The notes under the pieces are model-generated. The model saw nothing but the letters and a program-made list of their open reading frames with translations, was not told where the DNA came from and did not search any database. Shown here piece after piece: positions 19,390 through 64,000 of a stretch of DNA of 64,000 bases. Origin of the DNA: a virus. Location of the stretch: positions 58,998 through 122,997 of IMG/VR virus record IMGVR_UViG_3300018080_008436; one strand, 5' to 3'. The translations under genes were made by a program, and so were the position numbers. The first letter of the stretch is position 1; every line of letters begins with the position of its first letter.

Positions 19390-19391
19390 AT

Positions 19392-20300: not shown

Positions 20301-20384
20301 TGTACGCCAGCGAATCCTCGTTCTTATATCAGCGAATCTATCTGACCAAACAAGGAACACCTATACCATTTAGCGATGGGAGAT

Positions 20385-20464: not shown

Positions 20465-20467
20465 AAA

Positions 20468-20587
20468 TGGTGGCTCAGGTAGGATTTTACCTACAATGCA
20501 TGTTGGGGGATTTCGGCCAGCTATACCTGTAACCTACACCAATCATTGCAAGGATTGGTACTTCGCGTATAGTTCCGCCACTGAGCC
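20468..20587 (-). ncRNA. tRNA-like stable RNA (~117 nt + CCA)
   Basis: Acceptor pair GGCTCAG/CTGAGCC and an encoded CCA, a T-arm-like hairpin GTAGG-TAAAAT-CCTAC, and internal hairpins (ACCAATC...GATTGGT). Confidence 0.35.
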
Positions 20588-20826
20588 ATAAAAATGTTTC
20601 TGGTAGGTTTTGCACCTACATCCTGATGAGACTCACCGTGTAGTACAGCATTACCAAAGGCACTCTGCCGCCCCATTACGACATCAAACGCGACACTTTA
20701 AGCTCACACTATCAAGAAGGAGGTCACCGCACACTGGGTCAAATAGTGACTTTCCGAGCTTGCCTGCGGGTTACCCCGCTTCAGAAACAGTAAATTGTTA
20801 AAGATCACTTTTCTCTTTCGAGAAAT

Positions 20827-20927
20827 TGGTAGCGAGAGCAGGAATCGAACCTGCGTCAACAGAGATCATGACTCTCTGTGGGAAAGCTCATTTCGTTTCG
20901 GAAAGAGCGACCAACATCCTTCTCGCA
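20827..20927 (-). ncRNA. tRNA-like with CAU anticodon loop and an extra 23-nt hairpin in the D region
   Basis: T-arm GCAGG-TTCGATT-CCTGC, 3' TCTCGCT-A-CCA end, and anticodon stem-loop CAGAGA-GUCAUGA-UCUCUG. A GCTCTTTCCGAAACGAAATGAGC hairpin is inserted, and positions 1 and 72 are T and T. Confidence 0.35.
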
Positions 20928-20928
20928 T

Positions 20929-21017
20929 TGGTAGCGGAGGCAGGACTCGAACCTGCGAGGAATTTTACTTCCTTCTGGCTTATGAGACCAGCGAGTTACC
21001 AACTACTCTACTCCGCA
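20929..21017 (-). tRNA. type-II (long-variable-arm) tRNA with CAU anticodon
   Basis: Folds cleanly as TGCGGAG-TA-GAGT-AGTTGGTA-ACTC-G-CTGGT-CTCATAA-GCCAG-[AAGGAAGTAAAATTCCTC]-GCAGG-TTCGAGT-CCTGC-CTCCGCT-A-CCA. The discriminator is A73 and positions 1 and 72 are U and U. Confidence 0.6.
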
Positions 21018-25943: not shown

Positions 25944-28900
25944 TTAGCTTGTTTTGAAGATATTATACCAATCATGCTGATAAACGAGATCATCTTCGTC
26001 ATCTCCTGGCTGATAGCCTGGAGGACGAGGACCACCTGGATCGTCAATGACCCTTGGGACATATGTATCCTTTTGTGGAACTTTTTTAGCTTCTTCAATG
26101 TATTGGATTACTCTTTCATAAGCAATCCTTCCACTCTTAGTCTGTAGAACTCTTCCTTCGAAAAGTGCGTCAAGTTGTTTTATGATCTGAAGTTTGATTT
26201 CTGGGGATGGGGGATTCTTGCTGATGTTGTATGCTTTAAGAGCGGCCCTTCTGATTAATCGCTCATTCTTCTTCAACATAGGATATGAGTTCATGATTCT
26301 GGTTAGCTCTTTATAATCACCCCTTTCCAAAGCAGTCTCAGCGACTCCTACGGCTCTCTTAGACTCTCTTGATCTAAATTCCTCCACATGCTTCTCTGTT
26401 ACAATTGGTTTGCCGTAAAGATCTTGAATCTGTTTGATTATTGTATCATAATATGGATCACCTTTGTAGAACATACACATTGTGCTTAAGGTAACACATT
26501 TCTTATAAAATGCTGGATTTTTGGCAAGTCTTCCGCCATATAAATCATTAATACCTTTCATTTTGTCAAGAGGACTTTCTCCAGAATCAGAACCGTCTCT
26601 TATGTTGTTCCAGTTCAAGTATGTGCTTGTAGCATATGCTACAGCTTCTCCTAAAGAATCATCTGCGATTTCCTGAACCTTCTCTTTGATAAGCTTACCC
26701 CTGGTTCTCTTGTTCAGTTCCCCTATCTTTTCCCTATCACCTCTAGCAAATGCTGTCTGAGCATCTCTCTTTATACTTTGGTAAGTCTTCTCTGCAATAT
26801 CTTGGTAATATGGTTTAAGTGGAGTTCCGATCAATCTCTTGAAATCGTTGTAATACCCTTCTGTTTGATCCCAGCTAGTGTTCATGTCTGACAAAATCCT
26901 AGAAGCATGAGTAACTGAACGTTGAAGAAACCTTTCAGTATCAAAAAGATCACCTTTGAAGTTTTGGTTCAGAAGAATTAACTGATTATAGTTACTAGCA
27001 TCAAGGTGATTAATAGCTACTTCAGTAGCCTGTTGAATTGCTTGCTGATAAATTCGTTCATAATGCACCCCTCTAGAAAGTTCATTGTTTAATACCCTAT
27101 CAACCTGTTGGAAAAGATCTGGGTTATGAACCATCCATGTTGAACTCATCCTGATTACAGCTTCTTTGACTTCGTCTCTTGCACTTAACTCTGGGAATCT
27201 CTCCAAAATATCTCTAAATGCTGTTAGATCATTCTCTGCTAAATAGTTGATCACTTTATTTTCAGCAAGTCCTAGTGCTCCCTCATAAATAACATCAAAA
27301 TATTTCGGTTCGGATAACTTCTCATCAAAGAAATCATTTAAATTGTTAAAGGCCATTTGGTCTTCCACAAGCATTAATGAAGCTCTTTCAAGCATCATTT
27401 CAAATGCCTCTTCTTTGAACTCATCCAAATTCTCTTTAAGGTCAAAGTGAACTCTTATGTTATTAAATTTGTTGAAATTATTATCTTTAATTGCATCAAT
27501 ACAAGCTTCTGTAGCTACACCCTTAAATAAAGGCGCGGCCCCAGATTGATTAATGATTGCCTGAACATCATAAAGTAAAGTTTTTTGGGTGGCACTTTCT
27601 CTTTGATTCACCAGCCTCATATAAGCTTGGAAAGCTAAGTCTTGGACTTCTTTGTGTTTAACGGGGATTGATCCCATTTGGTTGTTCAATTTAGCAAAAT
27701 CAACCCTTTGTGTATTAAGGTAATCTTTTGCACCTTCTTCGATAATAGTTTCCAACTCTTTTTTAATGAGTTCGATGGATAACTGTTGTACCACTGGGTC
27801 TTTCTTTAAAAAAGAGTATCGGCCTAAATTAAACTCAACTTCATTTGGAGAAATAGATACTAATCTATCTCGACAAACTTTGTGAAATCTCGATGCTTGG
27901 ATTTCTTTGCGCATACCATCAATTTCTTTCTTGTGGTCTTTGGCTTCATTCAACGTCCATCTGACTTTCTTGACATCTTCTCTTCGTCTTGCCTCATCCT
28001 CTTCAGTCTCGCCTCTGGTTTTCCTCAAAGCTTGTTCTTGCTTTGCTGAATCTTGAATTTTTGCATTTATCTTAGCATCCATATTTTCAAGACCATTTAT
28101 ATAAGCATCTGCTTTGGCAGAATAGAACAAATTCTCAACTTTTGAAAGCTTTGTGATCTCCTTCCTATTTACCCACATTCGATTCTTTTCATTTCGAAGT
28201 GATTCAATTTTCTTCCTAACCTCTGCAACAAGTTTTTCTAAAGGTAAATTTAGTTTTATATTCGCTTTCTCTAAAGCTATCGTCAATTCAGATCTTCCGA
28301 GACCTTGCCTTACCTTCTTTTCAAAAAGTTCATCATCTATTTTAAAACCATATTGACTAAGAAGTTTTCCTTTATCTCCTTTATGCAAGTCAGCGAAGCA
28401 CTCATCCATGTTACTGACTGCTCCTTTGGAGAATTTATCAATTGTACTATTGTCTAAGTAATAGAAAGCATGCCCATTAGAAGTTATCTCTGGATCACTC
28501 ACCATATTAGTAATTTCTTCGATGTTTTTCCCAGATAGGTCTTTAACCCTTTCCTCGTCTTCACGAAGTTTTTTGAGGTTGTAGTGACCGGTCTTGTTCA
28601 TCTCAGAATTGATATGTGGATGTCTTTGACAGAGATTATATACTTTGTCAGCATACGGGACGATAGTGATATCCTTATTATTCAGCCCTCTAACTTCTTG
28701 TATTCGGCTACCGATGAACCTGATCGCCACTCTTGGGGCACCACCCTCTACATAGAACCAGAAATCTCCTTGGTAAGTATAATCTTTTGCGGTTCCAAGT
28801 CCACCTATGCACCATCCAGCACTATTAGTCAACATACTAATAATCTTGCCTCTGGCATCAGAAGTGGTTACATCCAGACCCCTAATTTGATTTCTAATAT

Positions 28901-29846
28901 CCTCTGGGTATTTTATTTTGGCACCGACATTTCTTCCACCAGGGATAACAACCCAATCATTCTTAAGCCCCTTAATATCTTCTTGAGAGACTTTATTAAG
29001 AGCATCTTCACCTTCGAGGTTCTTTTGTGTATTAAAATATGATGAAAATATTTGCTTATTACCCAGTGGCCTTTTGGAACTCTTCATCTCTTCATAGATA
29101 GGAGCAAGTTCTTCTTTCTTCGCCAAGGCTTCTTGTAAGTTTTCTTCAGCTTTTTTGATAACTACAGGTGCTTCATTTTTCTTTTTAAGTTGATTAACCT
29201 GATTGGTCAACTTAGACACTTGTTTGTTCAAGTTCTGGTAAACTGATGCTGTTTTTTCCTCCAAAACATAGATTCCACTTTCTATGTCTTCCTGCGTAAT
29301 TCCAAATTTTGCTAAGGTCTGAGTCTTAAGTCGATCACCAGCAAGTGCCTGCATATAGTTGTCAATCTTCGGAACGGACATCTCTTCATAAGATGCTTGC
29401 AAAACCTTATCTGTTGGTTCTGCGAGGGGACTGTTGGCAACAGAAACGGAAAGAATATAAAGGAAAGGATTGCTAAGTCTGTAAGTAAATTCTTTTGGTT
29501 GTTCGCCAAATAGAAGGTTCTCCCACTTAGGGATCTGCATCATGGCTTTAAGATAAACTCTTCTGTCTTGGTAAGATAACTCTTGCTTTTGAAGATCTTT
29601 GGCATCGAAGGTTAAAATCTTCTCAAAGTTAGCCTTGGATTTTTCTAAGAGTTCTTTAGCTTTTCCACTGACAATAAACTTGTCGATTTCTGCTCGTAAG
29701 CTTTTCTCATCATTGATGGCCTGCCAGTCAAGGTAGGCTCCACCTTTTCTATCTTCCAGGTTACAGATATTGATTAAGAGGGGATCAGTGGGATTTCCTG
29801 CACTTTTCAGCTTCTCTTCAACTTTTGCAATTTTAATGAATTTCAT
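25944..29846 (-). CDS. large hypothetical protein (1300 aa)
   Basis: The longest ORF in the window, with no recognisable catalytic motif and a coiled-coil segment around residues 200-250. It may be a virion or injected protein. Confidence 0.5.
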   Translation of the reverse strand: MKFIKIAKVEEKLKSAGNPTDPLLINICNLEDRKGGAYLDWQAINDEKSLRAEIDKFIVSGKAKELLEKSKANFEKILTFDAKDLQKQELSYQDRRVYLKAMMQIPKWENLLFGEQPKEFTYRLSNPFLYILSVSVANSPLAEPTDKVLQASYEEMSVPKIDNYMQALAGDRLKTQTLAKFGITQEDIESGIYVLEEKTASVYQNLNKQVSKLTNQVNQLKKKNEAPVVIKKAEENLQEALAKKEELAPIYEEMKSSKRPLGNKQIFSSYFNTQKNLEGEDALNKVSQEDIKGLKNDWVVIPGGRNVGAKIKYPEDIRNQIRGLDVTTSDARGKIISMLTNSAGWCIGGLGTAKDYTYQGDFWFYVEGGAPRVAIRFIGSRIQEVRGLNNKDITIVPYADKVYNLCQRHPHINSEMNKTGHYNLKKLREDEERVKDLSGKNIEEITNMVSDPEITSNGHAFYYLDNSTIDKFSKGAVSNMDECFADLHKGDKGKLLSQYGFKIDDELFEKKVRQGLGRSELTIALEKANIKLNLPLEKLVAEVRKKIESLRNEKNRMWVNRKEITKLSKVENLFYSAKADAYINGLENMDAKINAKIQDSAKQEQALRKTRGETEEDEARRREDVKKVRWTLNEAKDHKKEIDGMRKEIQASRFHKVCRDRLVSISPNEVEFNLGRYSFLKKDPVVQQLSIELIKKELETIIEEGAKDYLNTQRVDFAKLNNQMGSIPVKHKEVQDLAFQAYMRLVNQRESATQKTLLYDVQAIINQSGAAPLFKGVATEACIDAIKDNNFNKFNNIRVHFDLKENLDEFKEEAFEMMLERASLMLVEDQMAFNNLNDFFDEKLSEPKYFDVIYEGALGLAENKVINYLAENDLTAFRDILERFPELSARDEVKEAVIRMSSTWMVHNPDLFQQVDRVLNNELSRGVHYERIYQQAIQQATEVAINHLDASNYNQLILLNQNFKGDLFDTERFLQRSVTHASRILSDMNTSWDQTEGYYNDFKRLIGTPLKPYYQDIAEKTYQSIKRDAQTAFARGDREKIGELNKRTRGKLIKEKVQEIADDSLGEAVAYATSTYLNWNNIRDGSDSGESPLDKMKGINDLYGGRLAKNPAFYKKCVTLSTMCMFYKGDPYYDTIIKQIQDLYGKPIVTEKHVEEFRSRESKRAVGVAETALERGDYKELTRIMNSYPMLKKNERLIRRAALKAYNISKNPPSPEIKLQIIKQLDALFEGRVLQTKSGRIAYERVIQYIEEAKKVPQKDTYVPRVIDDPGGPRPPGYQPGDDEDDLVYQHDWYNIFKTS

Positions 29847-33138: not shown

Positions 33139-34212
33139 CTAGGCTTTATGGCCATTTTTTTCTTTAATAGGGTTGGCCTTCAAAGCTTCATAGTCAGCTT
33201 TATACATGATTTCAACGAGTTCATTGAACTTCACTTTCGGTTCCCATCCCAAAACTTTCTTTGCCTTGGAGTAATCTCCCAAAAGTAGATCCACTTCAGC
33301 AGGTCGATAATACCTTGGATCAATCTGAACTAGTGCATCTCCGCTCTTACTGAAACCAACTTCTTGCTGACCCTCGCCTTCCCATTTCAATGGCATCTCT
33401 GCCAAATCGAAAGCGATATCAACAAATTCCTTAATAGAATGTGTTTCATTTGTTGCTACGACATAATCATCTGGCTTATCCTGTTGCAACATCAACCACA
33501 TTGCTTCAACAAAATCTGGTGCATATCCCCAATCTCTTCTAGAATACATATTGCCAAGATACAAACAATCTTGCATTCCAAGCTTAATAGATGCCACGGC
33601 CCTGGTGATCTTTCTTGTAACGAAAGTTTCTCCTCTTCTAGGAGATTCATGGTTAAAAAGTATCCCGTTGCTTCCATAAATCCCATAGGACTCTCTGTAG
33701 TTCATTGTAATTGAGAACCCAAACTGTTTTGCAACACCATATGGGGATCTTGGATGAAACCTTGTCAACTCAGTTTGTGGACTCTCATAAGGAATACCGA
33801 ATAACTCTGACGAAGACGCTTGATAGAACTTACACTCAGGGCAAAAGGATCTGATCGCTTCCAGTAATCTCAAAACTCCCAATCCCGTTACATCCGCTGT
33901 GTATTCTGGCTTGTCAAATGACACCCTTACATGACTCATTGCCGCAAGGTTATAACACTCGGTTGGCCTTACCTTTTGAACGATTCTATTCAAACTGTTC
34001 GCATCTGATAAATCACCATAATGAAGATGTAAATTTACATGTCTGTCATGAGGGTCTTGATAAATGTGATCGATTCTCTCTGTGTTGAATGAACTGGATC
34101 TTCTTATGACTCCATGCACTTCATATCCCTTATTCAAAAGTAGTTCTGCTAGATATGAACCATCTTGTCCTGTTATCCCTGTTACCAGTGCGATTTTCTT
34201 TGATTTAGCCAT
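33139..34212 (-). CDS. gmd: GDP-mannose 4,6-dehydratase
   Basis: [46 protein letters not shown]...[14 protein letters not shown] is a textbook GMD signature. Confidence 0.9.
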
Positions 34213-41143: not shown

Positions 41144-41478
41144 TTTCTAGAATTCACAACCTCTTCTTTCATATGTTGAAACACTGACTCAATATCTGAG
41201 GAAACAAACACCTTAACAGTTTCGAATAGGTTGGAACCGAAGTAAACAGTTAAAGGAGACTCTAGGACAGATAGAACATAACGTTCATCTGAGTCACCTT
41301 CATCAACTAAGATGGCAAACCTTGGTATTGGGATACCATGTTGATTCTCCATTACGGTTAAATCAACCATATCACCATCGTCATCTACCGTAAAGGTGAA
41401 TTTTGTTTCTAACTCTTCTGAAAGCAGATGGAGTTCCTCTGTAATCATCCTTCCCCTAACCCCAGTTATTGTGCCCAA
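41128..41478 (-). CDS. hypothetical protein
   Basis: 116-aa ORF. Confidence 0.35.
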
Positions 41479-42403
41479 GTTCTTCCTTAAAGTATTTGAT
41501 CGTATGCTTCAAACCCTCTTCTAAAGGAACCTCAGGACCCCAATCCAATTTCTTTTTTGCCAAATCAATCACAGGTTTCCTTCTAGTTGGGTCATCCTTA
41601 GGAAGTTCCTTAAACACAATCTTAGAATCTGATCCTGTCAACTCTATGATCTTCTCAGCTAATTCAAGAATGGAGTTTTCTGTAGGATTTCCTAGATTGA
41701 CTGGCCCTGTAAAGTCCTGACTGTTCATCATCTTTATCATACCATCAATTAAATCACTTACATAACAGAAACTTCTTGTTTGAGATCCGTACCCATATAT
41801 TGTTATGTCTTCACCTTTCAAAGCTTGAACAATGAAGTTTGAAACAACCCTCCCATCCCCAGGACACATTCTAGGTCCATAAGTGTTGAAGATTCTGATC
41901 ACTTTAATATCTGAGTTGTATTGTCTGTAATAGTCAAAGAAAAGGGTTTCGGCACATCTCTTCCCAATGTCATAACAGCTTCTAGGCCCTATTGGGTTAA
42001 CACAACCCTTGTAAGACTCTGGTTGGGGATGTACTTCAGGATCACCATATACCTCAGAAGTTGATGCCTGAAGTATGGGGATCTTGAGTCTCTTGGCGAT
42101 CCCTAGCATATTGATGGCACCCATCACTGATGTCTTAGTTGTTTGAACTGGATCAAACTGATAGTGAATAGGAGATGCTGGACAGGCCAAGTTGTAAATC
42201 TGATCAACTTCTACATAAAGAGGGAATGTGATGTCATGTCTGATGACCTCGAAGTTTCTCATGTATTGAAAAGGGTAGATGTTTTTCTTCCTACCAGTGT
42301 AGAAATTATCAACACAAATTACTTCGTTGCCTTCTTGCAACAGTCTCTCGCAAAGATGGGAACCCAGGAACCCTGCTCCCCCTGTAACCAAAATTCTTTT
42401 CAT
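41456..42403 (-). CDS. UDP-glucuronate decarboxylase (UDP-xylose synthase)
   Basis: [34 protein letters not shown]...[11 protein letters not shown]...[19 protein letters not shown] is a near-consensus UXS/ArnA-decarboxylase signature. Confidence 0.85.
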
Positions 42404-42445: not shown

Positions 42446-42811
42446 CTATCGTGAGAACCTTTTGATGTAAGGATCAAATTGTTCCCAAGGAATCTCATTG
42501 TGACAATTGAATTCTCCGAAGAAACTTTCTTCTGTTTTCCGATCCCTGTAGAAGCACTCCCATACTTCTCCAATCAATTCAAACTCCATGTAGTTCTGAC
42601 TGTCGTCCAGAGCAAGCATAAACTCATTCTGAACGCCAGAAGGAGCCGCATCCATGTTCAGGTTCGGATAACGCTCATGAAAGGCTTCCCAGAAGCTTAA
42701 AACGATAAGAGAAGCGTCAACCGACAACAACTGCCGATTGACGCAATCCTCAACGTACTCTTCCATGGACTTATGACTTCTTGGTGAATCGTCCATTCTT
42801 TCCTCGTACAT
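42446..42811 (-). CDS. hypothetical protein
   Basis: 121-aa ORF. Confidence 0.35.
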   Translation of the reverse strand: MYEERMDDSPRSHKSMEEYVEDCVNRQLLSVDASLIVLSFWEAFHERYPNLNMDAAPSGVQNEFMLALDDSQNYMEFELIGEVWECFYRDRKTEESFFGEFNCHNEIPWEQFDPYIKRFSR

Positions 42812-43823
42812 TGTGATATTTCTTCCCGCTAGGCTTGTAGCCGAACGACTGAGTGGTTGGGGGAGTCGAAGTCCGTTTGATGAAACGGCCTTTCACATCT
42901 CTTGCAGGAGTTGGCTTGACAGAATCACCAACTGGTGCAACAAATGCATCGTCATTAGCCTGATCATCTGTCTCGGCAACCGTTTCAGCAACCGTTTCAG
43001 CTTCCTTGGCCTTCTCAGCCTTGACATGAACCATTTGTTTATGAACATCCTGGTTGGTGTCAATGTATGACTCTTCGAACGCTTCCTCTTGTTCGCGATT
43101 TGAAGAATCATATTCTGCAATAACCTCATAGCAACAGGCGCGTCCTTTGGTGTTGTTGTAATCGCGAGGAATCGCAACAACATCGCGAGGGTTGATCTTA
43201 ACAATAACAACTCGACTATTGTGCAAACAACCATATTTTGGGAGATAGGTGAGAGAACAGAAATGCAAACCCTTTGAACAGGTCCGATCCCGATCATCAT
43301 CGACCTCATCCCGATCCATATGAACAATTGCGCCAATAGAATGATCCAAGTGAGTCCCGTCAGGAGAAGCATGAATTGACTTCAAATCCATGTTGACCTT
43401 TTTATAGGCCAAGAAACACCCATCGTCTGTGACTGGATTGTTCCCCGTCTCCAAAAAGAGGTAGAGTTCGTCTTTGGCGCTTTGAAGTGGGTTCTTCAGA
43501 ACATTTTCCAGGAAGGCAATGAGTGGCTCAAAAGGATAGCCCTTTTCGCTAAACTTAAGGATGCGGTCAACAAGAACATTGTGAATCTCTTCGCCGTTGT
43601 AGAAGATAGCTCCGTTTTGAAAAACAACTTTCCCATCAGAGCATTTGTTGATTGCTAGGGGGACATTCAGAAATTCTTCGAGTCTATCGTAGTCCTTCCG
43701 GTTCAGCTTTTCCCGAATGGTCTCGTAGTTACGATGGTCAGTGGTTACATTGTAGGGGGTGCCGTTGACGTAAACGGTAACGTCCCCAGAGTTGTGATCA
43801 ATGATGTGGGCTACATGGCTCAT
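42771..43823 (-). CDS. rIIB: rIIB-like protein
   Basis: Collinear with T4 rIIB: VLVDRILKFSEKGYPFEPLIAFLENVLKNP against T4 LVDRILDSMEKGENFEFYFPFLENLLENP. Further matches include DDGCFLAYKKV, CSKGLHFCS, and VKINPRDVVAIPRDYNNTKGRACCYEV against T4 VKVHPRDVVSIPIDYNDAKMRTCQYEV. Confidence 0.85.
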   Translation of the reverse strand: MSHVAHIIDHNSGDVTVYVNGTPYNVTTDHRNYETIREKLNRKDYDRLEEFLNVPLAINKCSDGKVVFQNGAIFYNGEEIHNVLVDRILKFSEKGYPFEPLIAFLENVLKNPLQSAKDELYLFLETGNNPVTDDGCFLAYKKVNMDLKSIHASPDGTHLDHSIGAIVHMDRDEVDDDRDRTCSKGLHFCSLTYLPKYGCLHNSRVVIVKINPRDVVAIPRDYNNTKGRACCYEVIAEYDSSNREQEEAFEESYIDTNQDVHKQMVHVKAEKAKEAETVAETVAETDDQANDDAFVAPVGDSVKPTPARDVKGRFIKRTSTPPTTQSFGYKPSGKKYHNVRGKNGRFTKKS

Positions 43824-43832
43824 GATGTCCTC

Positions 43833-46034
43833 CTATTTGTAGAGCTTGTACTGGACCATTGCATTAATATAGTCCAAGAGATTGTTAATTCCAATGGGAC
43901 CGCCATAAAATTTATCAAAATCAAGGAAAAAAGGATATCGTTGTCCAAATTCATCCAACAACTCTTGATTTTTGGCTGAATATTGACGAATGGCTTTGAC
44001 CTCATCAGTCGTCAAGGTAGAATATCCTTCAGAAATATGATCCCATACCAAACGAGTGATCTTCTTGATCCCTTTGGACGTACAACGCTTCTGCTTGTCG
44101 TACCGTTTCGCCAGTTCCTTCAGGACTGGACATTTGCATTGCTTCATCCAAGTGCTTTTTCCGATCAGACCATCTTCATGACGAGTCTCAGGATATCGAT
44201 TGATTGATCGAAAAAGTTTCACAGTCTTACCATAGTCAACATCTTCGCTATTGATAAAAGTCTGCAACTCATCATGTACATTGGGCAACAGTGCATATTG
44301 ACGAATGATCTCTTGAACGAAATCAAACCAATTGATCCAGTCATCTCGTTTCTCAAGTGACTTGACTTTGGCGACTTTAACCCCATAAACAGTATGAAGC
44401 ATGTTGGGACAAATCAACTTATACATAGCGTTGAGTTTGTGCAAGAACTCATGCGGGGACTGGGTTTCGTTATTGTGGACAGTCTTCCAACGAGAGATTG
44501 GGACATAGAACCCACCTTCGTTTATATCGAAGTTATCTTCGTCTTTAACATTTGACCAGTAGGAAGAGTTATCAATTGGACAGTTGTCATCCCAGGACAT
44601 CTTGACAAAGTTTCCAAAAGCAGACACTTCTCGTTTTGCCCGAATGGCTTTGGGTGGTTCGATCTCGCTAAGCATGCGGATTTTTATGTCCTCGCCCATA
44701 CCCATCTCTTTACGAATTTGTTCGATGATCTTTTTGTTCGATGACTTGAACAGGTAGACATCTGAGACATGTCCATTTTCTTCGAGGAACTTCTTCACCC
44801 GAAGCATGTGGCGGCTAGTGCAATCGTTCAAAAAGAACGCGCTACGCTTACCAACCTTTATTCGAGCGCAAGGTTCGGACTTTACCACAGTCTCGTTAGA
44901 GTACCGACGACGATAGCTACTATGATAGAATACCCGAGTCAGAGTGCAATTCTCATCAATTTCATGGTAGTCTTTCATATTAACGCCAATCATCTTAGCG
45001 ACAATACGATCCTTGTATTTCACTTTAACATGGTTGAACAGAAGTTCAACGATCTTGTTTCGCTCCTTTTCTTCCCAGAACCACAATGACGCATCCCAGT
45101 AGTTATTGTGCTTCTCAACTTCTTTTTGTACGCGCTCTTTTTCAAAAGCGATGATACCCTGAACTCGTTCCCGAATCGCATTAGTGGTCTTCTCATCATA
45201 CGAGAGGGATTCGCGAGACGGGGTGATTTCCAGGTCTCCGATATCATAGAAGATATCCAAAGGGAAGGAGCGAAGAATCGACCGTTCATCTGCTGAAAAA
45301 TCCACCTTGTCCAAGCTAACAGGGTATGCGACATTTCCCATGACAGCAACCGCATTTCCATTTCGATTGGCCGAAAGACCCCAAACGCCATTTTGAGTGA
45401 TATACTCGCGTTTCCGAATGGAAGGTACGTTCCCAACGAAGTTTGGCCGATGTTCGAAATAAAAGAAGATGCTTTCGGCCTTATACTTGAATTCATGGAT
45501 ATCATTTTTCTTGACAGAGAACTGAACCTTCAGACCATTCTTCTCATCTGTATCCGACTCACTAATCAATGCGATAGTCGGAGTGCCTGCTTCATTCAGA
45601 AGAGCAGAGTATACATACTGTTTCCCCTGAAGAAAGCTAGTGATTGTAAACATGTCTACATAGGAGAAGGGGGACTTGGAACCAAGACCCAGGCAACCAA
45701 CTTCGTCATTAGTATCGGTCTTGGTTGATTCGAAGTAAGTGGTGTAAATCTCTTCGATGTCTGCCTTACTAAGGCCAGTACCATAGTCCCGAATATAGAA
45801 AAGAGGGTGGAAAGGAGTGGGGAGATGAACGTCGAAAGGGATGTCGAGGGTTCCTGCTTCAACATGAGCATCGTAAGCATTACAGCTAAGTTCTCGGATG
45901 ATGGCCCGAATTTTGTCAGAGTACAAGCCGTCAGAGAGGATTCTAAAGGCTTTCGCATTTGCTTTGATCTTGAATTCTTGTTCTTTAAAGTTCCCAGATC
46001 GTTCCAGCTTGCGATTTTTCTCGATGGTCTTCAT
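43833..46034 (-). CDS. rIIA: rIIA-like protein (GHKL/HSP90-type ATPase domain)
   Basis: [31 protein letters not shown]...[11 protein letters not shown]...[21 protein letters not shown] is collinear with T4 rIIA ([30 protein letters not shown]...[21 protein letters not shown]), and the length (733 aa) matches. Confidence 0.85.
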   Translation of the reverse strand: [733 protein letters not shown]

Positions 46035-46622: not shown

Positions 46623-47375
46623 TTACTCAGCAACGACGAGAATGACGCTGTGACCCAGGTTTGCCGAACATTCCTTGACAGCATACTGGGAGCTAATTCC
46701 AATTCTTTTCAGGAATCGTTTGGAGATGCGAATACGGCCATCAACATCCACCTTGTATGATTTGATGGAATTGATTGGGTTGGTGGAAATCGACAGCGCA
46801 TTGACGTTCTTCCCATCCTTTCTTGCTACCGACTGGCTGATATGAGCATGGGGAGGGAAATGCTTGAGCATTTTAACTGGAATGTTAAGTCTACCCTCTT
46901 TGGTAACAGAGAACGTCTTGAAGCCGTCAGAGAGGCTTTGAACGCGATTTGCGACTGTCTGAGAGTTTACTCTCTGAACCTGGACATTCTGACTCTGAAC
47001 TGTCTGAGTGGTTGAGTCATCGTCATCATCGTCATCGAGTGGACTCCCATCAATTGGGCTGATGACAGTTTGAGTCTGAGTAGGAAGATAGGAATCTACC
47101 CAATCCTTATCATACTCAGTATCGGGGTCCTGGTGGTTCAGATGGTAGATGAACGGAGCGATGCGTCTACCGATGTTAACCTGGGTACGTTCATAGATAC
47201 CCATTTCATCGTTTTCATACATCTCATGAACTTTGTTCTTGACTTCATTATGAGAAACATTCTCACCGTCAAGACGGTGGCGCATGATGCGGGTCACATC
47301 ATAGGCAGAGAAGAGTTTGCGATTTCGGGTGAGTTCGTTGACAACTTTTTCAGTTTCTGATTGGATGTTAACCAT
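46623..47375 (-). CDS. hypothetical protein with poly-Asp tract
   Basis: 250-aa ORF containing DDDDDDDS. Confidence 0.35.
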   Translation of the reverse strand: MVNIQSETEKVVNELTRNRKLFSAYDVTRIMRHRLDGENVSHNEVKNKVHEMYENDEMGIYERTQVNIGRRIAPFIYHLNHQDPDTEYDKDWVDSYLPTQTQTVISPIDGSPLDDDDDDDSTTQTVQSQNVQVQRVNSQTVANRVQSLSDGFKTFSVTKEGRLNIPVKMLKHFPPHAHISQSVARKDGKNVNALSISTNPINSIKSYKVDVDGRIRISKRFLKRIGISSQYAVKECSANLGHSVILVVAE

Positions 47376-49062: not shown

Positions 49063-49845
49063 TTAAATGTCATCAATCGTTGGGGGCGCTTGATGTTTGT
49101 GTTTATTTGCATAATGCATCTTTCTGACAAATGCACCAACAACAGACTTTTCCCATTCGCCTGTTTCTTTGAATCTTCTGATAACAGGTTCCATCTCATC
49201 GTAAGTGTAACCCAATTCTTTTTCGTCAGTCTGCCCATCCCAAAGTCCAGCAGACGGGACTCTGTCAATATGACGTTCTTCAATGTCGCCTCTCTCAACA
49301 AACCATTCAAGCATACCATACACTTCAGATTTGAAAAGATGACCGATGGGGAAGAAGTCTGCGAGAGCATCCCCACCCTTGGTATCATAACCGATAAAAT
49401 CCTCCGAAAGGTTCCCCGTACCCATGACTCGAACTCTTTGGTTGCTGTAATCCCTGGCGAACTTTTCTGACAGAGTACAACAATAAGTGTAAAGAGCGAC
49501 CATTCGCATACGACTTCTCATATTGCCAGAGTTCAATTCTGAAATTTTGAGATGTCCAAATTCATCTTCAAGAGAATCACAAGTTTCCCTGATGAAAATC
49601 ATTTCGCCCTTTACTCCAAGATTACTAGCGATATCCAATGACCTTGCATTGAACTTGCTTCCACTCAAATCTCGGTTGTCATAAGGCATATGCAAAACGT
49701 AAACATTCTCTGCCCCAAGAGCTTCTTTGCACAGAAGCGTTACCAGAAGAGAGTCAACTCCCCCACTTAAACCAATTACGGCCTTATCAGTGAATTTCGC
49801 AATTGCATCTGTAATTCTTTCAATTTCTCCTGGGATTGATTCCAT
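49063..49845 (-). CDS. nadE: NH3-dependent NAD+ synthetase
   Basis: PP-loop GLSGGVDS, and GNLSEDFIGYDTKGGDALADFFPIGHLFKSEVYGM matching the NadE GYFTKYGDGxxDxxPLxxLxKxxV block. Confidence 0.8.
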   Translation of the reverse strand: MESIPGEIERITDAIAKFTDKAVIGLSGGVDSLLVTLLCKEALGAENVYVLHMPYDNRDLSGSKFNARSLDIASNLGVKGEMIFIRETCDSLEDEFGHLKISELNSGNMRSRMRMVALYTYCCTLSEKFARDYSNQRVRVMGTGNLSEDFIGYDTKGGDALADFFPIGHLFKSEVYGMLEWFVERGDIEERHIDRVPSAGLWDGQTDEKELGYTYDEMEPVIRRFKETGEWEKSVVGAFVRKMHYANKHKHQAPPTIDDI

Positions 49846-49857: not shown

Positions 49858-50274
49858 TTATATGTTTACTATTGTACTTACAGTGTCTTCTTGATTCTCA
49901 TAAGGGAAATGAATCCAAAAGTCATACTTGTTTTCAAATCCAAAATAGGTTGGCTGGATAGTTGAAGTTTTGTTAAGGACTATCACCGCTACATCAAGAT
50001 TTTTGTAGTCGATATGTTTGAACAGTCTCTCCAAAGTTCCCCCGCTATCAAGGATATCATCACAAATCAGAGTATTGAAAGAGATATCGGATTCACTTAC
50101 AATAAGAGGGATATCCAAAGCATGAGAAAGCATAACAGCAGGGATAAGACCGCCTCTGGGAACTCCATATATGTTTTCATACATATCATCACCCTTTCTT
50201 TCCTTGATCTCTTGGGCGATTTTATCAACATTGTGAGCGAAGTACTTCCAACTTATGTCTCTAATCTGCTTCAT
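49858..50274 (-). CDS. type I phosphoribosyltransferase (xanthine-guanine PRT-like)
   Basis: YGVPRGGLIPAVMLSHALDIP, ICDDILDSGGTL (PRPP-binding loop), and DFWIHFPYE resemble the Gpt motifs AVSRGGLVPGALLARELGI, VIDDLVDTGGT, and DTWIEQPWD. Confidence 0.6.
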   Translation of the reverse strand: MKQIRDISWKYFAHNVDKIAQEIKERKGDDMYENIYGVPRGGLIPAVMLSHALDIPLIVSESDISFNTLICDDILDSGGTLERLFKHIDYKNLDVAVIVLNKTSTIQPTYFGFENKYDFWIHFPYENQEDTVSTIVNI

Positions 50275-50800: not shown

Positions 50801-50878
50801 TGGTCGGGGTGAGACGATTCGAACGTCCGACTTCTTGCTCCCAAAGCAAGCGCTCTAACCAGGCTGAGCTACACCCCG
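50801..50878 (-). tRNA. tRNA-Pro (UGG)
   Basis: The minus-strand sequence CGGGGTG-TA-GCTC-AGCCTGGTTA-GAGC-G-CTTGC-TTTGGGA-GCAAG-AAGTC-GGACG-TTCGAAT-CGTCT-CACCCCG-A-CCA forms a canonical cloverleaf. Confidence 0.85.
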
Positions 50879-55303: not shown

Positions 55304-55636
55304 TCATTCTGGGTTTGGTAAAGACTTATATCCACAGTTACTGCAATAATACCCCATAGGAATCACACGAGAGAAGTAAGGGTCTGGCTTATCACATTCG
55401 CAGACCTTCTCTTCTTTAGGCTCTGGAAAAAGCTTACACTTACAACACCGACCATCTTCTAAGAGAGTATATAATCCATCATGCCTACAATATGATTGAG
55501 AGTTATCAATGCAAAACTGAGCGACCTCAAGAACGTCTTTCGCTGTGACGTTTCCCAGAACCTTAACTTCTGGCTCCCAAGAAGAAACACATTTCTTCAG
55601 TTCTTCGGCCTTCTTTTTAATGCTCATTACCTTCAC
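55304..55636 (-). CDS. small Cys-rich protein
   Basis: CRHDG...CCKCK...CECDKP...CSNCGYK. Confidence 0.4.
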   Translation of the reverse strand: MKVMSIKKKAEELKKCVSSWEPEVKVLGNVTAKDVLEVAQFCIDNSQSYCRHDGLYTLLEDGRCCKCKLFPEPKEEKVCECDKPDPYFSRVIPMGYYCSNCGYKSLPNPE

Positions 55637-56037
55637 CTGCCTCCGTTTCCATCTTCTTTAGGTCTAGTATTCCACGCAGTTACTGCCCAACCTAGTCTTG
55701 ATTGTTCGACAGACGCTTGGCATTTTGGATTTTGACATTTGATGATGCGACCTCGCACTGTCCCACTATTGTCGGTATAACGAGGCAATATTTTGATATC
55801 ATCACCTTCACAGAATGGACATAGAAGCAACTCATGTCCACTTACAAGAACTACATGGTCGTGCGCATGGACGGTCACACTGGTTTTGCTCTGCTTTGCT
55901 TCGTCTATACAGTCAAGACACCACATTATACCATAACCCAGGTTTTCCTGAGGATACTTGGGTTTCATGCATTTGTCACAAAGACCGATTCCTTCTCGAA
56001 TTTCGCACTTACTCTTTTTTGCGGTTGAGTCAGTCAT
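55633..56037 (-). CDS. Cys-rich zinc-finger protein
   Basis: CDKCMKP...CLDC...CPFCEG...CQNPKC. Confidence 0.4.
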   Translation of the reverse strand: MTDSTAKKSKCEIREGIGLCDKCMKPKYPQENLGYGIMWCLDCIDEAKQSKTSVTVHAHDHVVLVSGHELLLCPFCEGDDIKILPRYTDNSGTVRGRIIKCQNPKCQASVEQSRLGWAVTAWNTRPKEDGNGGR

Positions 56038-56606
56038 TGTTTGCCATCCTTCTCTCTCGCCTTTCGTTCAAGAAAATTAAGTTCATCTCGCTCAAATACT
56101 CTGGCTAAAGAATCCTGTAACTCTGACCACTCATATGATGTGAACTGGTCGTAATAATTCTCAGGATTTTTCAACACAATATTAAGGGCTTTTCTTGTCG
56201 CCTCCCACTCACCTTTATAAAAGGTAGCAGGGCGACAACGATGTGTTGATTCTTTTTCAGCTTCTTTTTGTTCTTCGAAGCCTGCTCCTAAGAATGGTTC
56301 CCCAGGTTCCACTTCTCCATTCCAGAGAGCCATTGCCCATTGAATCATGAATTGATACATGACTCCATAAAAGCTTAAATCTTCATCCCACATGTCAACG
56401 AATTCATCAAGAACAACTCCTTCATCATCACATATGGATTGAAAACTAATTTGAGGACCCCGACACCTACATCTTTCGCAGGAAACCGCTCTGGTTTCAT
56501 AATCCATAGGTCCAACGTCCAAATATTCTGCTGTCTTGCAGAATGGACAATCTCTTAATCCTTCTACCATTTTAACAATCCTCAATAGCTCGTCCCATAA
56601 AACCAC
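56034..56606 (-). CDS. Cys-rich protein
   Basis: CPFCKT...CERCRC. Confidence 0.4.
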   Translation of the reverse strand: MVLWDELLRIVKMVEGLRDCPFCKTAEYLDVGPMDYETRAVSCERCRCRGPQISFQSICDDEGVVLDEFVDMWDEDLSFYGVMYQFMIQWAMALWNGEVEPGEPFLGAGFEEQKEAEKESTHRCRPATFYKGEWEATRKALNIVLKNPENYYDQFTSYEWSELQDSLARVFERDELNFLERKAREKDGKQ

Positions 56607-58467: not shown

Positions 58468-59793
58468 TTATTTTCCGTTAGGTGAAAACTCAACCAAGTA
58501 CTTCAGGTTAACTTGGGACGTTCTGTAAACGATCATTTCGTTGTTCATGACCCCAGACTTGTTCGCCTTAGCGAAAGTGGAATCAGTATTACGAACAGGG
58601 AAACCGCTTCCGTAACGAGCAGGGACATGATAATTGCCCATTGCCATATCCAAAAGGAACATGAAGCAATTGTTGTCAGCCTTTCCGCCCCAATAGCCAT
58701 AAGCGTAGTTTAACGCCTTCGTAGACTGATCTGAGGCGTAGACCCCATTCCCGAACATTCGGCCCGTACAATGGCTTGAAGAGGCTGGAGGAATGACCAG
58801 ACCGCCCTTCAGGATCGAAAGAAGGTTGGATGCTCTTGTACCATGCCATAACTCCCAGATGTTGTCCATCTTCGCCCCATCCAATTCGAAAGCCTGACGG
58901 ACAGTATTGATGTCAACCTTGTAAATGGTTTTGACATCCAGGTGATAACAGGCATGTCTTGACTGACGGGTTTTCCCATACATCTTTTTAATATGGGCCA
59001 GAGTCTTGGAATCTTCTACCAGATCCAGTTGAACATCGAAGACCTGTTCTTCAGGAAGTTTCACAGTCTTCTTGCGTCCAGGCTGAGTGGTTGCAGTAAC
59101 CAAAGATGCCTGTAAAGCATCAACAATTGACTTCTGTTTCTGGACCTTGGCAAGATCAGACCAGAAATTATTCACATCCAGTCGCTTTCTTCCAATGTTC
59201 TGAGGGACCAACATAAGGTAGTCATTGGTCAAGTCGCCTAATTTTGCAGTGTAACGACCTTTGGCAACCATATCACCAATCTTGACCAGGATGTCATTGG
59301 CATCATCAATATTACCTTGAGTGACGATACCCATGGGCGTTGAAAACAGCCCTGTAGTATCATTGAAGGTAATCTGACCGCCAGTAGCAGATGAGATCTG
59401 ATGGGCGTTGACTTTCGTCAGATAGGTGATCAACTTTGCAACGTTGGGGTTGTTATATTTGATTTGTTTCTTGGCAACGCTTTCGAGGTTGGCCTTCGCA
59501 ACGGTTTTCTGAGCGGTCTGAGTCGTTGTTCCACCTTCAACGATCTCAATCTCTCGATAAGCGATCTCACCATTTCGACCAGAACGAAGTTTAGATCTAA
59601 TCTTGCTTTCAGCAAACTTTCGGCCTGCCGCTTCACTACCTTTCTGGTAGGTTCGGCTTTGTCCTGAATCTCCTACGCGACCATAGCGGACGGTTACTTC
59701 TCCATCGTCATAGATTTCAACATTCCAGAATTTGTTGTTGTTCTTTTTGTGATCGCTTTTGATGAAATGGCGTTTTTCGATTAATGTACCCAT
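58468..59793 (-). CDS. WGR-domain poly(ADP-ribose) polymerase (PARP)-like ADP-ribosyltransferase
   Basis: N-terminal WGR domain (KFWNVEIYDDGEVTVRYGRVG). C-terminal PARP catalytic H-Y-E triad region: LWHGTRASNLLSILKGGLVIPP...GRMFGNGVYASDQSTKALNYA...NNEMIVYRTSQVNLKYLVEF. The last segment is near-identical in pattern to the PARP1 C-terminus [24 protein letters not shown]. Confidence 0.8.
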   Translation of the reverse strand: MGTLIEKRHFIKSDHKKNNNKFWNVEIYDDGEVTVRYGRVGDSGQSRTYQKGSEAAGRKFAESKIRSKLRSGRNGEIAYREIEIVEGGTTTQTAQKTVAKANLESVAKKQIKYNNPNVAKLITYLTKVNAHQISSATGGQITFNDTTGLFSTPMGIVTQGNIDDANDILVKIGDMVAKGRYTAKLGDLTNDYLMLVPQNIGRKRLDVNNFWSDLAKVQKQKSIVDALQASLVTATTQPGRKKTVKLPEEQVFDVQLDLVEDSKTLAHIKKMYGKTRQSRHACYHLDVKTIYKVDINTVRQAFELDGAKMDNIWELWHGTRASNLLSILKGGLVIPPASSSHCTGRMFGNGVYASDQSTKALNYAYGYWGGKADNNCFMFLLDMAMGNYHVPARYGSGFPVRNTDSTFAKANKSGVMNNEMIVYRTSQVNLKYLVEFSPNGK

Positions 59794-59845: not shown

Positions 59846-59905
59846 TCTTTAGCGTATACAATAGTTCATCTAGGTCTATTGTCAACCTGTACTAAGAAAA
59901 AAATC

Positions 59906-61641: not shown

Positions 61642-62277
61642 TTAGTCTTTCTTAACGAACTTCTTGATTTTCTTTTCCATTGGAAGTTCGACACTACCAG
61701 TAGTCATAAACCTTAGTCCCAAGTTTATCATAGCCAGGACAGTTGCGGGGAGATACATTGATGTTTGGGGGTCATCAGAAACAAAAACCCCTAGAATACA
61801 CCCAGCAGTGGCCAAGACATTTGAAATAACAGTCTTGGATTTATACCAAGGTTTCTTTCCTTCAGTGACCTCCTTGTCTGGATTATTGGCAAAGATCTCT
61901 TGCACATCTTCAACAATCTCAGGAAGGCTTTCAATAACATCTTCTGCGACTTCCATGAGATCCAAGCCATCTTCCGACTCTTCAGGTTTTATCTCAGGTT
62001 CTATTTCAGGTTCGGGTTCTGGTTCCTCTTGGAGGTTTTCACTCTCAATGGGACTCGTACTGGGACTCTCTTGTGGAACAGTTTCCTCAACTGGTCGATC
62101 AAAATACGGATTAACATCTTCTTTTTCCTCTTCTACAACGGTGCTTTGATCGATAAGGACTAAATCACCAGCTTTGAGTTTCTCTCTGAACTCATCAATG
62201 TCATCCAAAGAAGCAGGACCGACATTTTTTACCTCAAGCTGAACAGGTACATTATTAATTTTTACATCCAAATACAT
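61642..62277 (-). CDS. acidic protein with C-terminal membrane anchor
   Basis: A central PEPEPEIEPEIKPE acidic tract and a C-terminal transmembrane helix (VISNVLATAGCILGVFV). It is the last gene before the CRISPR array. Confidence 0.4.
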   Translation of the reverse strand: MYLDVKINNVPVQLEVKNVGPASLDDIDEFREKLKAGDLVLIDQSTVVEEEKEDVNPYFDRPVEETVPQESPSTSPIESENLQEEPEPEPEIEPEIKPEESEDGLDLMEVAEDVIESLPEIVEDVQEIFANNPDKEVTEGKKPWYKSKTVISNVLATAGCILGVFVSDDPQTSMYLPATVLAMINLGLRFMTTGSVELPMEKKIKKFVKKD

Positions 62278-62416: not shown

Positions 62417-64000
62417 GTCACATTTGGCTCAAGTTTTTCTTGAGCCTATACCCGTATCCAGCAGACGTTTGACGGGCAGGTCGAGTTGGTCACAATTAGC
62501 TCAAGTTTTTCTTGAGCCTATACCATATCAGAGAGCAAAAAAGAAGTTTGCTCAAGCCCTGTCACATTTGGCTCAAGTTTTTCTTGAGCCTGTACCTAAG
62601 AGAGCTTATCTGTTCCAACGATTCTTGTATAGTGTCACAATTAGCTCAAGTTTTTCTTGAGCCTGTACCACAGGATTCTAAGCCTCGTCACAATTAGCTC
62701 AAGTTTTTCTTGAGCCTGTACCTTGTTGAAACCGTCAGAAGCGGCGGGTTGGGAGAGAGTCACATTTAGCTCAAGTTTTTCTTGAGCCTGTACTAAGTCT
62801 GGGAACAGGGCAAAGAGCATGTTCTACACTCGTCACATTTGGCTCAAGTTTTTCTTGAGCCTGTACCATTTCTCTGCCTTGAATCGCTTCAGGTTGTCAC
62901 AATTAGCTCAAGTTTTTCTTGAGCCTGTACCGAAAGAAGCTCTGGTAATTCAGATAATCCAGGTCTTGTCACAACTGGCTCAAGTTTTTCTTGAGCCTGT
63001 ACCGAATTCTGGGTTCAGGGAGACCCACGTCGGATCATGTCACAACTGGCTCAAGTTTTTCTTGAGCCTGTACCATTTCTCTGCCTTGAATCGCTTCAAG
63101 TTGTCACAATTAGCTCAAGTTTTTCTTGAGCCTGTACCTTAGAAACCTTGTTACTACTGATGAGGTCACATTTAGCTCAAGTTTTTCTTGAGCCTGTACC
63201 AGTTGATGGCCGCTAACCTGTGGAGCCTTGGCCTGCGTCACATTTGGCTCAAGTTTTTCTTGAACCTGTACCATTCGAAATCCATTCCGTCAACCAGATT
63301 GCTCAGGGGTTACAATTAGCTCAAGTTTTTCTTGAGCCTGTACCTTACAGTCTAAAAACGCTTCCAGAATTGGCGGCAGGTCACATTTGGCTCAAGTTTT
63401 TCTTGAGCCTGTACCTCAATGAAAACGATTGGGTATTGCAGAGTCTCACTTTGTCACAACTGGCTCAAGTTTTTCTTGAGCCTGTACCGTGCAAACGCAT
63501 TAGTTTGAGCAGGTCTTGCCAGCAGTCACAACTGGCTCAAGTTTTTCTTGAGCCTGTACCAGATTTCATAACGGGGTTGATGTCACAATTAGCTCAAGTT
63601 TTTCTTGAGCCTGTACCAGGAGTAAGGATCAGTTCTGTTACACCTACCTTCTTGTCACAATTAGCTCAAGTTTTTCTTGAGCCTGTACCAGAAGTAATCG
63701 AAATGATTGACTGGAGAGCATTCCTCGTCACAATTAGCTCAAGTTTTTCTTGAGCCTGTACCACCTGCATTGCGCTCGACTGCAAGTTGTCAGGCGTCAC
63801 AATTAGCTCAAGTTTTTCTTGAGCCTGTACCATTCCCTGTCGGAGGCTGAGAAGTGGGATTTGATCATGTCACATTTGGCTCAAGTTTTTCTTGAGCCTG
63901 TACCAGAATACGTGAGGGGAGAACGATTTGCAGATATCCATGTCACATTTGGCTCAAGTTTTTCTTGAGCCTGTACCATTCCCTGTCGGAGGCTGAGAAG
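62417..64000. CRISPR. CRISPR array of at least 22 repeats, running off the window edge
   Basis: The 36-bp repeat GTCACA[AT][TC]T[AG]GCTCAAGTTTTTCTTGAGCCTGTACC has an internal 8-bp palindrome GGCTCAAG/CTTGAGCC. Repeats start at 62417, 62489, 62561, 62634, 62687, 62759, 62832, 62896, 62968, 63039, 63103, 63165, 63237, 63309, 63380 and onward. Spacers are 17-37 bp, mostly 35-37. The two repeats nearest 62417 carry CCTATACC instead of CCTGTACC. An AT-rich flank lies at 62280-62416. Confidence 0.9.

Follow-up and report, generated by a model that had tools for sequence, protein, structure and literature searches.

A PARP-like gene with WGR, regulatory, and catalytic domains

We analyzed 64,000 nucleotides of viral DNA (positions 58,998 to 122,997 of IMG/VR record IMGVR_UViG_3300018080_008436; this whole 64-kb stretch is called the window) around one gene, whose product resembles the poly(ADP-ribose) polymerases (PARPs) of eukaryotes. 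An earlier reading made without database searches (the sequence-only reading) had described a 441-amino-acid (aa) protein with a WGR domain and a PARP-type catalytic region carrying an H-Y-E triad. The open reading frame (ORF) was found at that position on the minus strand with an ATG start, and Pfam recovered both the WGR and the PARP domains above the curated cutoffs, with H317, Y352, and E419 present. These were full domain matches with an intact triad and not a remote, noncatalytic similarity. The gene has the following features.

58468..59793, minus strand: PARP gene, from the ORF list; ATG start, 441 aa, 49 kDa, pI 9.6
59578..59772, minus strand: WGR domain, aa 8-72; Pfam PF05406, E 6.8e-13, 49 bits against a cutoff of 22
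59044..59487, minus strand: PARP regulatory helical domain (HD), approximately aa 103-250, with a low-confidence loop at 233-247
58483..59007, minus strand: ADP-ribosyltransferase (ART; PARP catalytic) domain, aa 263-437; Pfam PF00644, E 1.4e-27, 96.9 bits against a cutoff of 26.7
58843-58845, 58738-58740, and 58537-58539, minus strand: catalytic triad codons for H317, Y352, and E419, respectively
59858..59885, minus strand: sigma-70-like promoter candidate (weak), TTGACA-16-TATTGT, within the 112-nt gap that precedes the PARP start

The protein is laid out as a WGR domain, a disordered linker, the HD, and the ART domain, an order drawn from Pfam, PHROG, and PDB matches and from an AlphaFold2 (AF2) model searched with Foldseek. 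The WGR motif itself reads Y37-G38-R39, and an NNNKFW motif lies at aa 17-23; in the profile alignment this region pairs with "NNNKYY...RWGRVGKMGQ" of PARP2. The WGR region is basic, with a pI of 9.9 for aa 1-82. The HD between WGR and ART had been overlooked in the sequence-only reading and was detected by Pfam, although the PARP_reg match (PF02877, aa 151-229) was marginal, at 27.7 bits against a cutoff of 26.8. The assignment is supported by a profile alignment to PARP2 that runs unbroken from WGR through HD into ART and by helices that AF2 predicts at residues 103-110, 116-136, 159-177, 183-195, and 214-230.

The triad residues occur in the contexts LWHGT (H317), GVYASD (Y352), and NNEMIVY (E419) and align with H862, Y896, and E988 of PARP1 in phmmer searches against PDB sequences. 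In these searches, PARP1 catalytic fragments were matched at E 2.6e-25 and PARP2 was aligned from WGR into ART (residues 15/16-387). The likeness of the C terminus to PARP1 around the catalytic Glu, pointed out in the earlier reading, was reproduced by phmmer over a segment that begins with KANKS and ends with VEFSP. The match to PHROG 23333 was full length (E 2.3e-55; residues 10-436 against profile positions 8-382 of 383). On sequence grounds, these data identify the window PARP as a complete PARP2-like WGR-HD-ART module. Sigma-70-like matches near the gene were no more numerous than in shuffled sequence.

Conservation and predicted structure

Conservation was assessed in an alignment of 104 homologues, of which 41 come from phage loci and 63 from bacterial genomes, with identity to the query down to approximately 30%. 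H317, G318, Y352, K359 (PARP1 K903), Y363 (PARP1 Y907), and E419 were invariant. Within the WGR motif, G38 was likewise invariant, R39 was present in all but one sequence (103/104), and position 37 was mostly W or Y; M346 (PARP1 M890) was Met in 88 of the 104. This pattern of invariance argues for purifying selection on both catalysis and the WGR domain. A 20-sequence alignment of relatives that are 51 to 73% identical showed dense conservation across all three domains.

The best PDB match of the family profile was full-length PARP2, covered from WGR through HD into ART (E 6e-35). The AF2 model of the window PARP (pLDDT 78, pTM 0.70) was disordered at residues 84-101 and 233-247, and its pLDDT was ~90 at H317, Y352, and E419; comparison of the model with known structures was by global superposition only. 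Foldseek matched the model to PARP1 WGR-catalytic (WGR-CAT) chains from DNA double-strand-break complexes with TM values of 0.64 to 0.69 (E 3e-28) over ~490 columns, and PARP2 was superposed as well.

Distribution of the family and prior knowledge

A tblastn search found the PARP gene in 16 of 50,697 phage records, several of which are already annotated as PARP. The carriers include Xanthomonas phages XacN1 and Xoo-sp13, Stenotrophomonas phages CM1/RAS14, three Klebsiella phages, and Cellulophaga phages phi4:1/phi17:2. A pattern-limited scan of GTDB gave PARP loci in at least 71 of 185,579 species genomes, with 31 to 49% identity to the window PARP. These loci belong to Armatimonadota, Cyanobacteria, Blastocatellia, Actinobacteria (among them Leifsonia sp. 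Leaf264), proteobacterial plasmids, and one Altiarchaeales metagenome-assembled genome (MAG), and several lie on multi-megabase chromosomal contigs. A word-indexed search of 5.8 billion proteins returned 1,833 matches, the top 120 of which were all ~440 aa long with the same domains. Exhaustive HMMER searches of 1.84 billion cluster representatives gave 3,157 matches at E ≤1e-3, 1,263 at ≤1e-10, and 394 at ≤1e-30. The closest sequences (50 to 72% identity) were all metagenomic. A Synergistaceae-labeled MAG carried two PARP paralogues (L005/P0019 and P0104; L numbers are our locus designations) that are 63% and 53% identical to the query, and both records give the same source name and the same 182,571-bp longest contig. 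This contig is probably a mis-binned huge phage with two PARP genes.

The statement in the sequence-only reading that PARPs are rare in bacteria and phages holds numerically, as the above counts show, but the class has already been annotated and reviewed. It is represented by PHROG 23333, where "polymerase" stands for PARP, and by GenBank phage entries, and the phage and bacterial members are covered in published work (PMC7824862, PMC9503650, PMC11662467, PMC4245714). Viral PARPs have been on record since 2005 (PMC1266365). Jumbo-phage PARPs have been described with XacN1 BBA65562.1 as the cited example (PMC7824862), PART/PARP enzymes are among the most frequent viral ARTs (PMC9503650), and NAD+ synthesis genes co-occur with PARP in gut jumbo phages (PMC11662467). 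Bacterial PARPs and their synthesis of poly(ADP-ribose) (PAR) in vitro have also been reported (PMC4245714, PMC5966428, PMC8120803). The Herpetosiphon aurantiacus enzyme (HaPARP) was reported to require DNA, automodification of the Clostridioides difficile CD160 enzyme (CdPARP) was seen with NAD+ and activated DNA, and the products of both were reversible by PARG (PMC8120803, PMC5966428, PMC4245714). The window PARP is a further member of this annotated enzyme class and not a new kind of protein.

A gene family linked to PARP

De novo clustering of the ORFs that flank PARP, followed by iterated hidden Markov model (HMM) searches, identified a conserved neighbor family, c1. Shadow ORFs that overlap PARP in high-GC bacterial loci were discarded from the conserved-neighbor clusters. 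The window has one member.

46623..47375, minus strand: c1 member, 250 aa; family HMM E 2e-52; next to rIIA and 11.1 kb downstream of PARP, with which it shares the strand

Members of c1 are ~90 to 450 aa long, typically ~200 to 250 aa in phages. Linkage of c1 to PARP was found in 33 of 111 loci, comprising 19 of 41 distinct phage loci and 14 of 70 bacterial loci (locus list: window, L006-L034, L048-L110, and L120-L125). In the 19 phage loci, c1 lies on the PARP strand, and in 16 of those it begins within 1 kb downstream, often after 0 to 60 nt. The bacterial loci are from Armatimonadota, Blastocatellia, Omnitrophota, Planctomycetota, and Chloroflexota. A reciprocal test started from c1. Six c1 members taken from the protein database and located on long contigs all had a same-strand PARP upstream, at distances of 16 nt to 2.6 kb, and a seventh, found by tblastn in a 595-kb uncultured phage (LR756511), lies ~1.6 kb downstream of PARP. 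All seven c1 members found independently of PARP are therefore preceded by it.

In three loci, PARP and c1 are followed by a further gene: a macro domain in L017 (12524-13105), an ADP-ribosylglycohydrolase (ADP_ribosyl_GH) in L120 (5089-6072), and an SRAP abasic-site-sensor domain in L121 (4444-5109). This arrangement suggests that ADP-ribosylation in these modules is reversible and related to DNA damage.

No Pfam or PHROG family matched c1, and its 82 database homologues are all "hypothetical" or unnamed apart from one labeled an AbrB-type antitoxin. The AF2 model (pLDDT 86.5) consists of an N-terminal domain, a disordered poly-Asp/Gln linker, and a C-terminal domain. The acidic N-terminal domain (pI 5.5) comprises three helices and a hairpin, with Foldseek matches to winged helix-turn-helix proteins of the PadR/RTP/Fur type at E 0.02 to 0.2. 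The C-terminal domain is basic (pI 10.3) and resembles the swapped-hairpin DNA binders MraZ/AbrB (Foldseek MraZ E 1e-3), with weak sequence support, so that c1 is predicted to bind DNA. Conservation is found in the N-terminal domain, where F22, T23, A24, D26, T28, H42, Y61, and F75-V76-Y77-H78 are near invariant.

These data make c1 a candidate substrate, cofactor, or regulator of PARP. We tentatively suggest that PARP and c1 may form a two-gene module of phages and several bacterial phyla, to which a macro or ARH eraser is added in some loci and in which c1 would be a dedicated DNA-bound substrate or cofactor, similar to histones or HPF1. If so, the module would parallel, in prokaryotes and viruses, the PAR signaling that takes place on eukaryotic chromatin. 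In the literature consulted on phage and bacterial PARPs, no description of the pairing was found. The linkage is strong and apparently unreported, offers a concrete candidate substrate or cofactor for prokaryotic and phage PARPs, also in cultured systems (Blastocatellia and Armatimonadota genomes, huge phages), and bears on the pre-eukaryotic origin of PAR signaling.

NAD+ synthase, CRISPR array, and defense systems

The sequence-only reading had also drawn attention to a CRISPR array 2.6 kb from PARP and an NAD+ synthetase about 9 kb from it. The synthase gene is as follows.

49063..49845, minus strand: NH3-type NAD+ synthase NadE, 260 aa; Pfam NAD_synthase E 6.6e-45; TIGR00552, 156 bits against 63.65

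Both distances are real: NadE is encoded on the PARP strand, 8.6 kb downstream, and the array starts at 62417, 2,624 nt from the PARP start codon. Neither CRISPR nor NadE nearness is general among PARP loci. As in the window, NadE is no more than 10 kb away from PARP in L003, L005, L006, and L007, on either side and at varying distances. When 39 IMG/VR loci (33 to 56% identity) were searched by phmmer with the window NadE, it was within 10 kb only in L007/8 and L016. A general NadE-PARP link was rejected, as it is confined to closer relatives and absent from other phage loci. Directly upstream of NadE is a truncated-looking 138-aa phosphoribosyltransferase (49858-50274, minus strand); it is of the purine type (XPRT/HGPRT-like) and was rejected as an NAD-pathway enzyme. 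Among the window ORFs scanned, NadE was present and NadD, PncB, NAMPT, and NadR were not found.

The CRISPR array occupies 62417-64000 and continues past the window (L001:1-5384). It has at least 23 copies of a 36-nt repeat, GTCACA-N4-GCTCAAGTTTTTCTTGAGCCTGTACC, which has an internal hairpin and three alternating variants. The spacers are irregular (17 to 37 nt), and a near-duplicate pair, differing by 1 nt, follows the repeats at 62832 and 63039. An 820-aa DEAD/Cas3-like helicase is encoded just beyond the window end, together with a second gene that is cut off by the end of the locus and whose 1119-aa product gives a weak Cas12f1-like TNB match. A link between CRISPR and PARP was rejected: when L001-L117 and the window were scanned for regularly spaced k-mers, the window phage alone had arrays, with a 4-copy repeat in L027 as the sole exception. 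PADLOC gave no model match for PARP, c1, NadE, or the flanking ORFs, and a role of PARP in a known anti-phage defense system was rejected on that basis.

Proposed function and alternatives

The three Pfam domains, the invariant NAD+-site and catalytic residues, and the full-length match to the PARP1/2 fold all support an enzymatic role. We consider that the window PARP is probably a functional NAD+-dependent ADP-ribosyltransferase of the PARP2/PARP3 type, activated by nucleic acid ends. By analogy with PARP1/2/3, HaPARP, and CdPARP, the HD would keep the NAD+ site shut until the basic WGR domain binds a nucleic acid end or break, and the opened enzyme would then move ADP-ribose from NAD+ onto itself and nearby acceptors. 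Further steps are suggested, with lower confidence, by the genome context. PARP may be expressed from an auxiliary/nucleotide-metabolism gene block of the phage and may modify DNA-associated proteins when phage DNA is replicated, recombines, or is damaged. The c1 protein (46623-47375) would be a candidate target or cofactor, and the phage NadE may help to sustain the NAD+ that PARP consumes. Because erasers adjoin PARP and c1 in L017 and L120, reversible modification of macromolecules is favored over plain NAD+ destruction. As one more well-conserved example of a eukaryote-style, putatively DNA-break-sensing transferase in a bacterial virus, the window PARP leaves the general picture of phage PARPs unchanged.

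Several observations weigh against this proposal. PARP1 Y986 is replaced by an Asn (N417) that is invariant in the 104 homologues. PARP1 S904 is Ala in the window PARP and A or S across the family, and the stretch between "GNYH" and "NNEMIVY" is 19 residues long compared with 47 in PARP1, i.e., ~28 residues shorter. These departures from PARP1/2 make polymerase activity uncertain. In the window phage, c1 is not adjacent to PARP, and the nearness of NadE to PARP is limited to one clade and may reflect no more than synteny. No PARG, macro, ARH, or NADAR eraser was found within the window and 10 kb beyond it; the search used Pfam on ORFs of at least 150 aa together with precomputed Pfam assignments, a GGG-x6-8-QEE PARG-signature regular expression, and phmmer seeded with an approximate Escherichia coli YmdB (macro), the L006 NADAR, and the L120 ARH. 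In addition, no experimental or biochemical study of any phage PARP was found in the literature searched.

The alternatives, by decreasing weight, are mono-transfer or nucleic acid-end modification, takeover of the host in the manner of Alt/Mod, NAD+ depletion, and a dead gene. The first of these holds that the protein is a PARP3-like mono-ADP-ribosyltransferase, possibly modifying terminal phosphates of DNA or RNA for end marking or protection or for RNA/DNA repair, and it is a possible but rather unlikely account. The H-Y-E triad is necessary for polymer synthesis but insufficient, as PARP3 and PARP4 carry it and are nevertheless mono-transferases; PARP4 appears as a "mono-ADP-ribosyltransferase" among the PDB sequence matches. 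For this reason the triad does not discriminate between poly- and mono-activity, and the product may be a polymer or a single ADP-ribose. The invariant N417 at the Y986 position and the much shorter loop ahead of the catalytic Glu are consistent with mono-transfer. Conversely, K359 is invariant and M346 is Met in most homologues, and these residues correspond to PARP1 K903 and M890, which we take to line the acceptor site. Bacterial relatives of the same architecture also make PAR in vitro (PMC5966428, PMC8120803).

The neighborhood adds to the case for end modification. The RNA ligase gene Rnl1 lies within 5 kb of PARP in 8 of the 9 loci that bear it, often immediately upstream; L003 and L007 have PNKP, Rnl1, RtcB, and a Pol-X-like gene, and the window has Rnl2. 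ADP-ribosylation of nucleic acid ends by PARPs is documented (PMC8385414), and it is also treated in PMC13036486 and in a 2026 bioRxiv preprint. The RNA-repair neighbors are, however, clade specific and may mirror shared early-gene blocks. A T4-type RNA ligase 1 within ~1 kb upstream of PARP was observed in one phage clade (L026, L027, L031, L032, L033, and L043), and PNKP, RtcB, and Rnl2 were observed near PARP in other loci (also L003, L009, and L037), making up a recurrent RNA-repair neighborhood.

An improbable alternative is that the protein is a host-takeover enzyme, similar to T4 Alt, ModA, or ModB, that (poly)ADP-ribosylates host proteins, for instance RNA polymerase or translation factors, whether or not DNA breaks are present. 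Modification of host proteins has been proposed for jumbo-phage PARPs (PMC7824862), phage ARTs commonly target host machinery (PMC8120803), and the window gene is surrounded by small ORFan genes that make up an early-like block not far from rIIA/rIIB. Strict conservation of the WGR domain and the autoinhibitory HD implies activity that is gated by a ligand and not constitutive, and the triad is H-Y-E rather than the R-S-E of Alt/Mod. The same module and its partner gene also occur on multi-megabase bacterial chromosomal contigs, where takeover would make no sense.

Much less credible still is an NAD+-draining effector that would serve superinfection exclusion or manipulate NAD+-dependent host defenses, with NadE restoring the NAD+ of the phage. 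Hyperactivation of PARP1 depletes NAD+, which provides a precedent, and NadE is nearby in the clade of the window phage. NAD+ is also central in phage-host conflict (PMC9503650, PMC11662467). Set against this are the lack of a PADLOC match for PARP or its neighbors and the fact that most phage PARP loci have no NadE within 10 kb. The erasers that adjoin PARP in L017 (macro) and L120 (ARH) suggest signaling, and it would not be parsimonious for a phage both to make NAD+ and to spend it as a weapon.

The last alternative, a gene of cellular origin that is catalytically dead or decaying, can practically be set aside. It is favored only by how often huge phages in general carry horizontally acquired passengers. 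The ORF was recovered intact from two independent assemblies and has hundreds of full-length relatives, and the conservation pattern, with all catalytic residues invariant among homologues as distant as ~30% identity, contradicts this alternative.

Genome context of the window

A PARP protein identical to that of the window is on record in a contig of ~524 kb (ENA ERZ27256796 k141_941235, 523,871 bp; elsewhere 524,692 bp) and in an independent 37-kb Logan assembly. Almost all window genes are on the minus strand. Homologues of rIIA (733 aa) and rIIB (350 aa) lie at 42771-46034 (minus strand; PHROG E 1e-132 and 1e-67) and are useful markers of the T4-like lineage of huge phages. Other window genes encode ThyX, Rnl2, a peptide deformylase, and a PcfJ-like protein. 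Five tRNA genes (19156-21017 and 50801-50878, minus strand) specify three tRNA-Gly (one GCC and two TCC), tRNA-Met, and tRNA-Pro.

The assignment of the source as an uncultured huge phage is indirect but strong. It rests on rIIA/rIIB, PHROG matches, ThyX, Rnl2, the five tRNAs, the ~524-kb contig, and the IMG/VR relatives; a point against it is that no capsid, terminase, or structural genes were found within the window. No near-identical DNA was found in INPHARED, and on this basis the phage is taken to be uncultured.

The ORFs directly downstream (157 and 154 aa) and upstream of PARP had no Pfam, PHROG, or c1-HMM match and are ORFans. Downstream of PARP there is a run of small Cys-rich ORFs; it includes two small Cys-rich proteins (55633-56606, minus strand) with weak, subthreshold similarity to the Lar restriction-alleviation zinc ribbon. 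Upstream, a 211-aa acidic protein with a C-terminal hydrophobic segment (61642-62277, minus strand) has no family match and is kept 1 to 6 kb upstream of PARP in L003, L005, L006, and L016, the closest relatives.

Elsewhere in the window, a pair of neighboring genes at 13650-15322 (minus strand) encodes sigma-70-like factors of 271 and 282 aa with regions 2 and 4; an S49 peptidase follows and, farther along, an M50 peptidase. A GDP-mannose 4,6-dehydratase and two NAD-dependent epimerase/dehydratase genes (33139-34212, 41456-42403, and 6206-7117, minus strand) encode nucleotide-sugar enzymes and are further NAD(P)-binding proteins in the window. An NT5C-type 5'-nucleotidase and a homologue of inosine-uridine-preferring nucleoside hydrolase (2944-3558 and 4065-4961, minus strand) possibly act in salvage of nucleotides or nicotinamide riboside. 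A 1300-aa ORF at 25944-29846 (minus strand) had no Pfam match at E ≤1e-3.

Comparison with known systems

The T4 enzymes Alt, ModA, and ModB are also NAD+-dependent phage ARTs, but they carry an R-S-E triad without WGR or HD. They belong to a different clade from the window PARP, whose triad is H-Y-E, and are nonhomologous to it at the family level. A closer parallel is provided by the "NAD-jumbo phages" (Li et al. 2024, PMC11662467), huge phages with NAD+ synthesis and NAD+-consuming enzymes including PARP, for which phage-directed DNA repair has been proposed (PMC11662467). Compared with these phages, the window shows only NadE of NAD+ synthesis, and the neighboring phosphoribosyltransferase is of the purine type.

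Among annotated phage PARPs, full-length homologues are 32 to 38% identical to the window PARP, and the Cellulophaga proteins are ~28% identical over a partial alignment. The annotation of Klebsiella phage vB_KpM_FBKp34 QQV91759.1 already gives WGR, regulatory, and catalytic domains. In XacN1 and FBKp34, c1 was not found downstream of PARP.

The bacterial PARPs HaPARP, CdPARP, and that of Leifsonia sp. Leaf264 have the same WGR(Y/W-G-R)-PARP_reg-PARP layout and the same size as the window PARP; CdPARP is inhibited by the PARP inhibitor rucaparib. The Leifsonia enzyme (named in PMC5966428) is 36% identical to it over residues 10-436; HaPARP and CdPARP were likened to it through published descriptions, and the sequence comparison was made with Leifsonia and the GTDB loci. 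The window PARP differs from the bacterial enzymes in being encoded in a ~524-kb phage genome and in having no PARG or macro partner found in the window.

The same WGR-HD-ART order is found in human PARP2, in PARP3, and in the WGR-HD-CAT core of PARP1 (Clade 1, DNA dependent), at ~20 to 25% identity to the window PARP. The phage-encoded protein is without the N-terminal DNA-binding extension, zinc fingers, and BRCT domain of the human PARPs, and it has a 20-residue disordered linker after WGR, unlike human PARP2 and the PARP1 core. It also departs from the human enzymes in the invariant Asn at Y986, the Ala at S904, and the shorter pre-Glu loop described above. Common to the window PARP and PARP1/2 are the H-Y-E triad, the Gly after the His, the K903 and Y907 equivalents, and the NNNK...WGRVG..GQ motif of the WGR domain.

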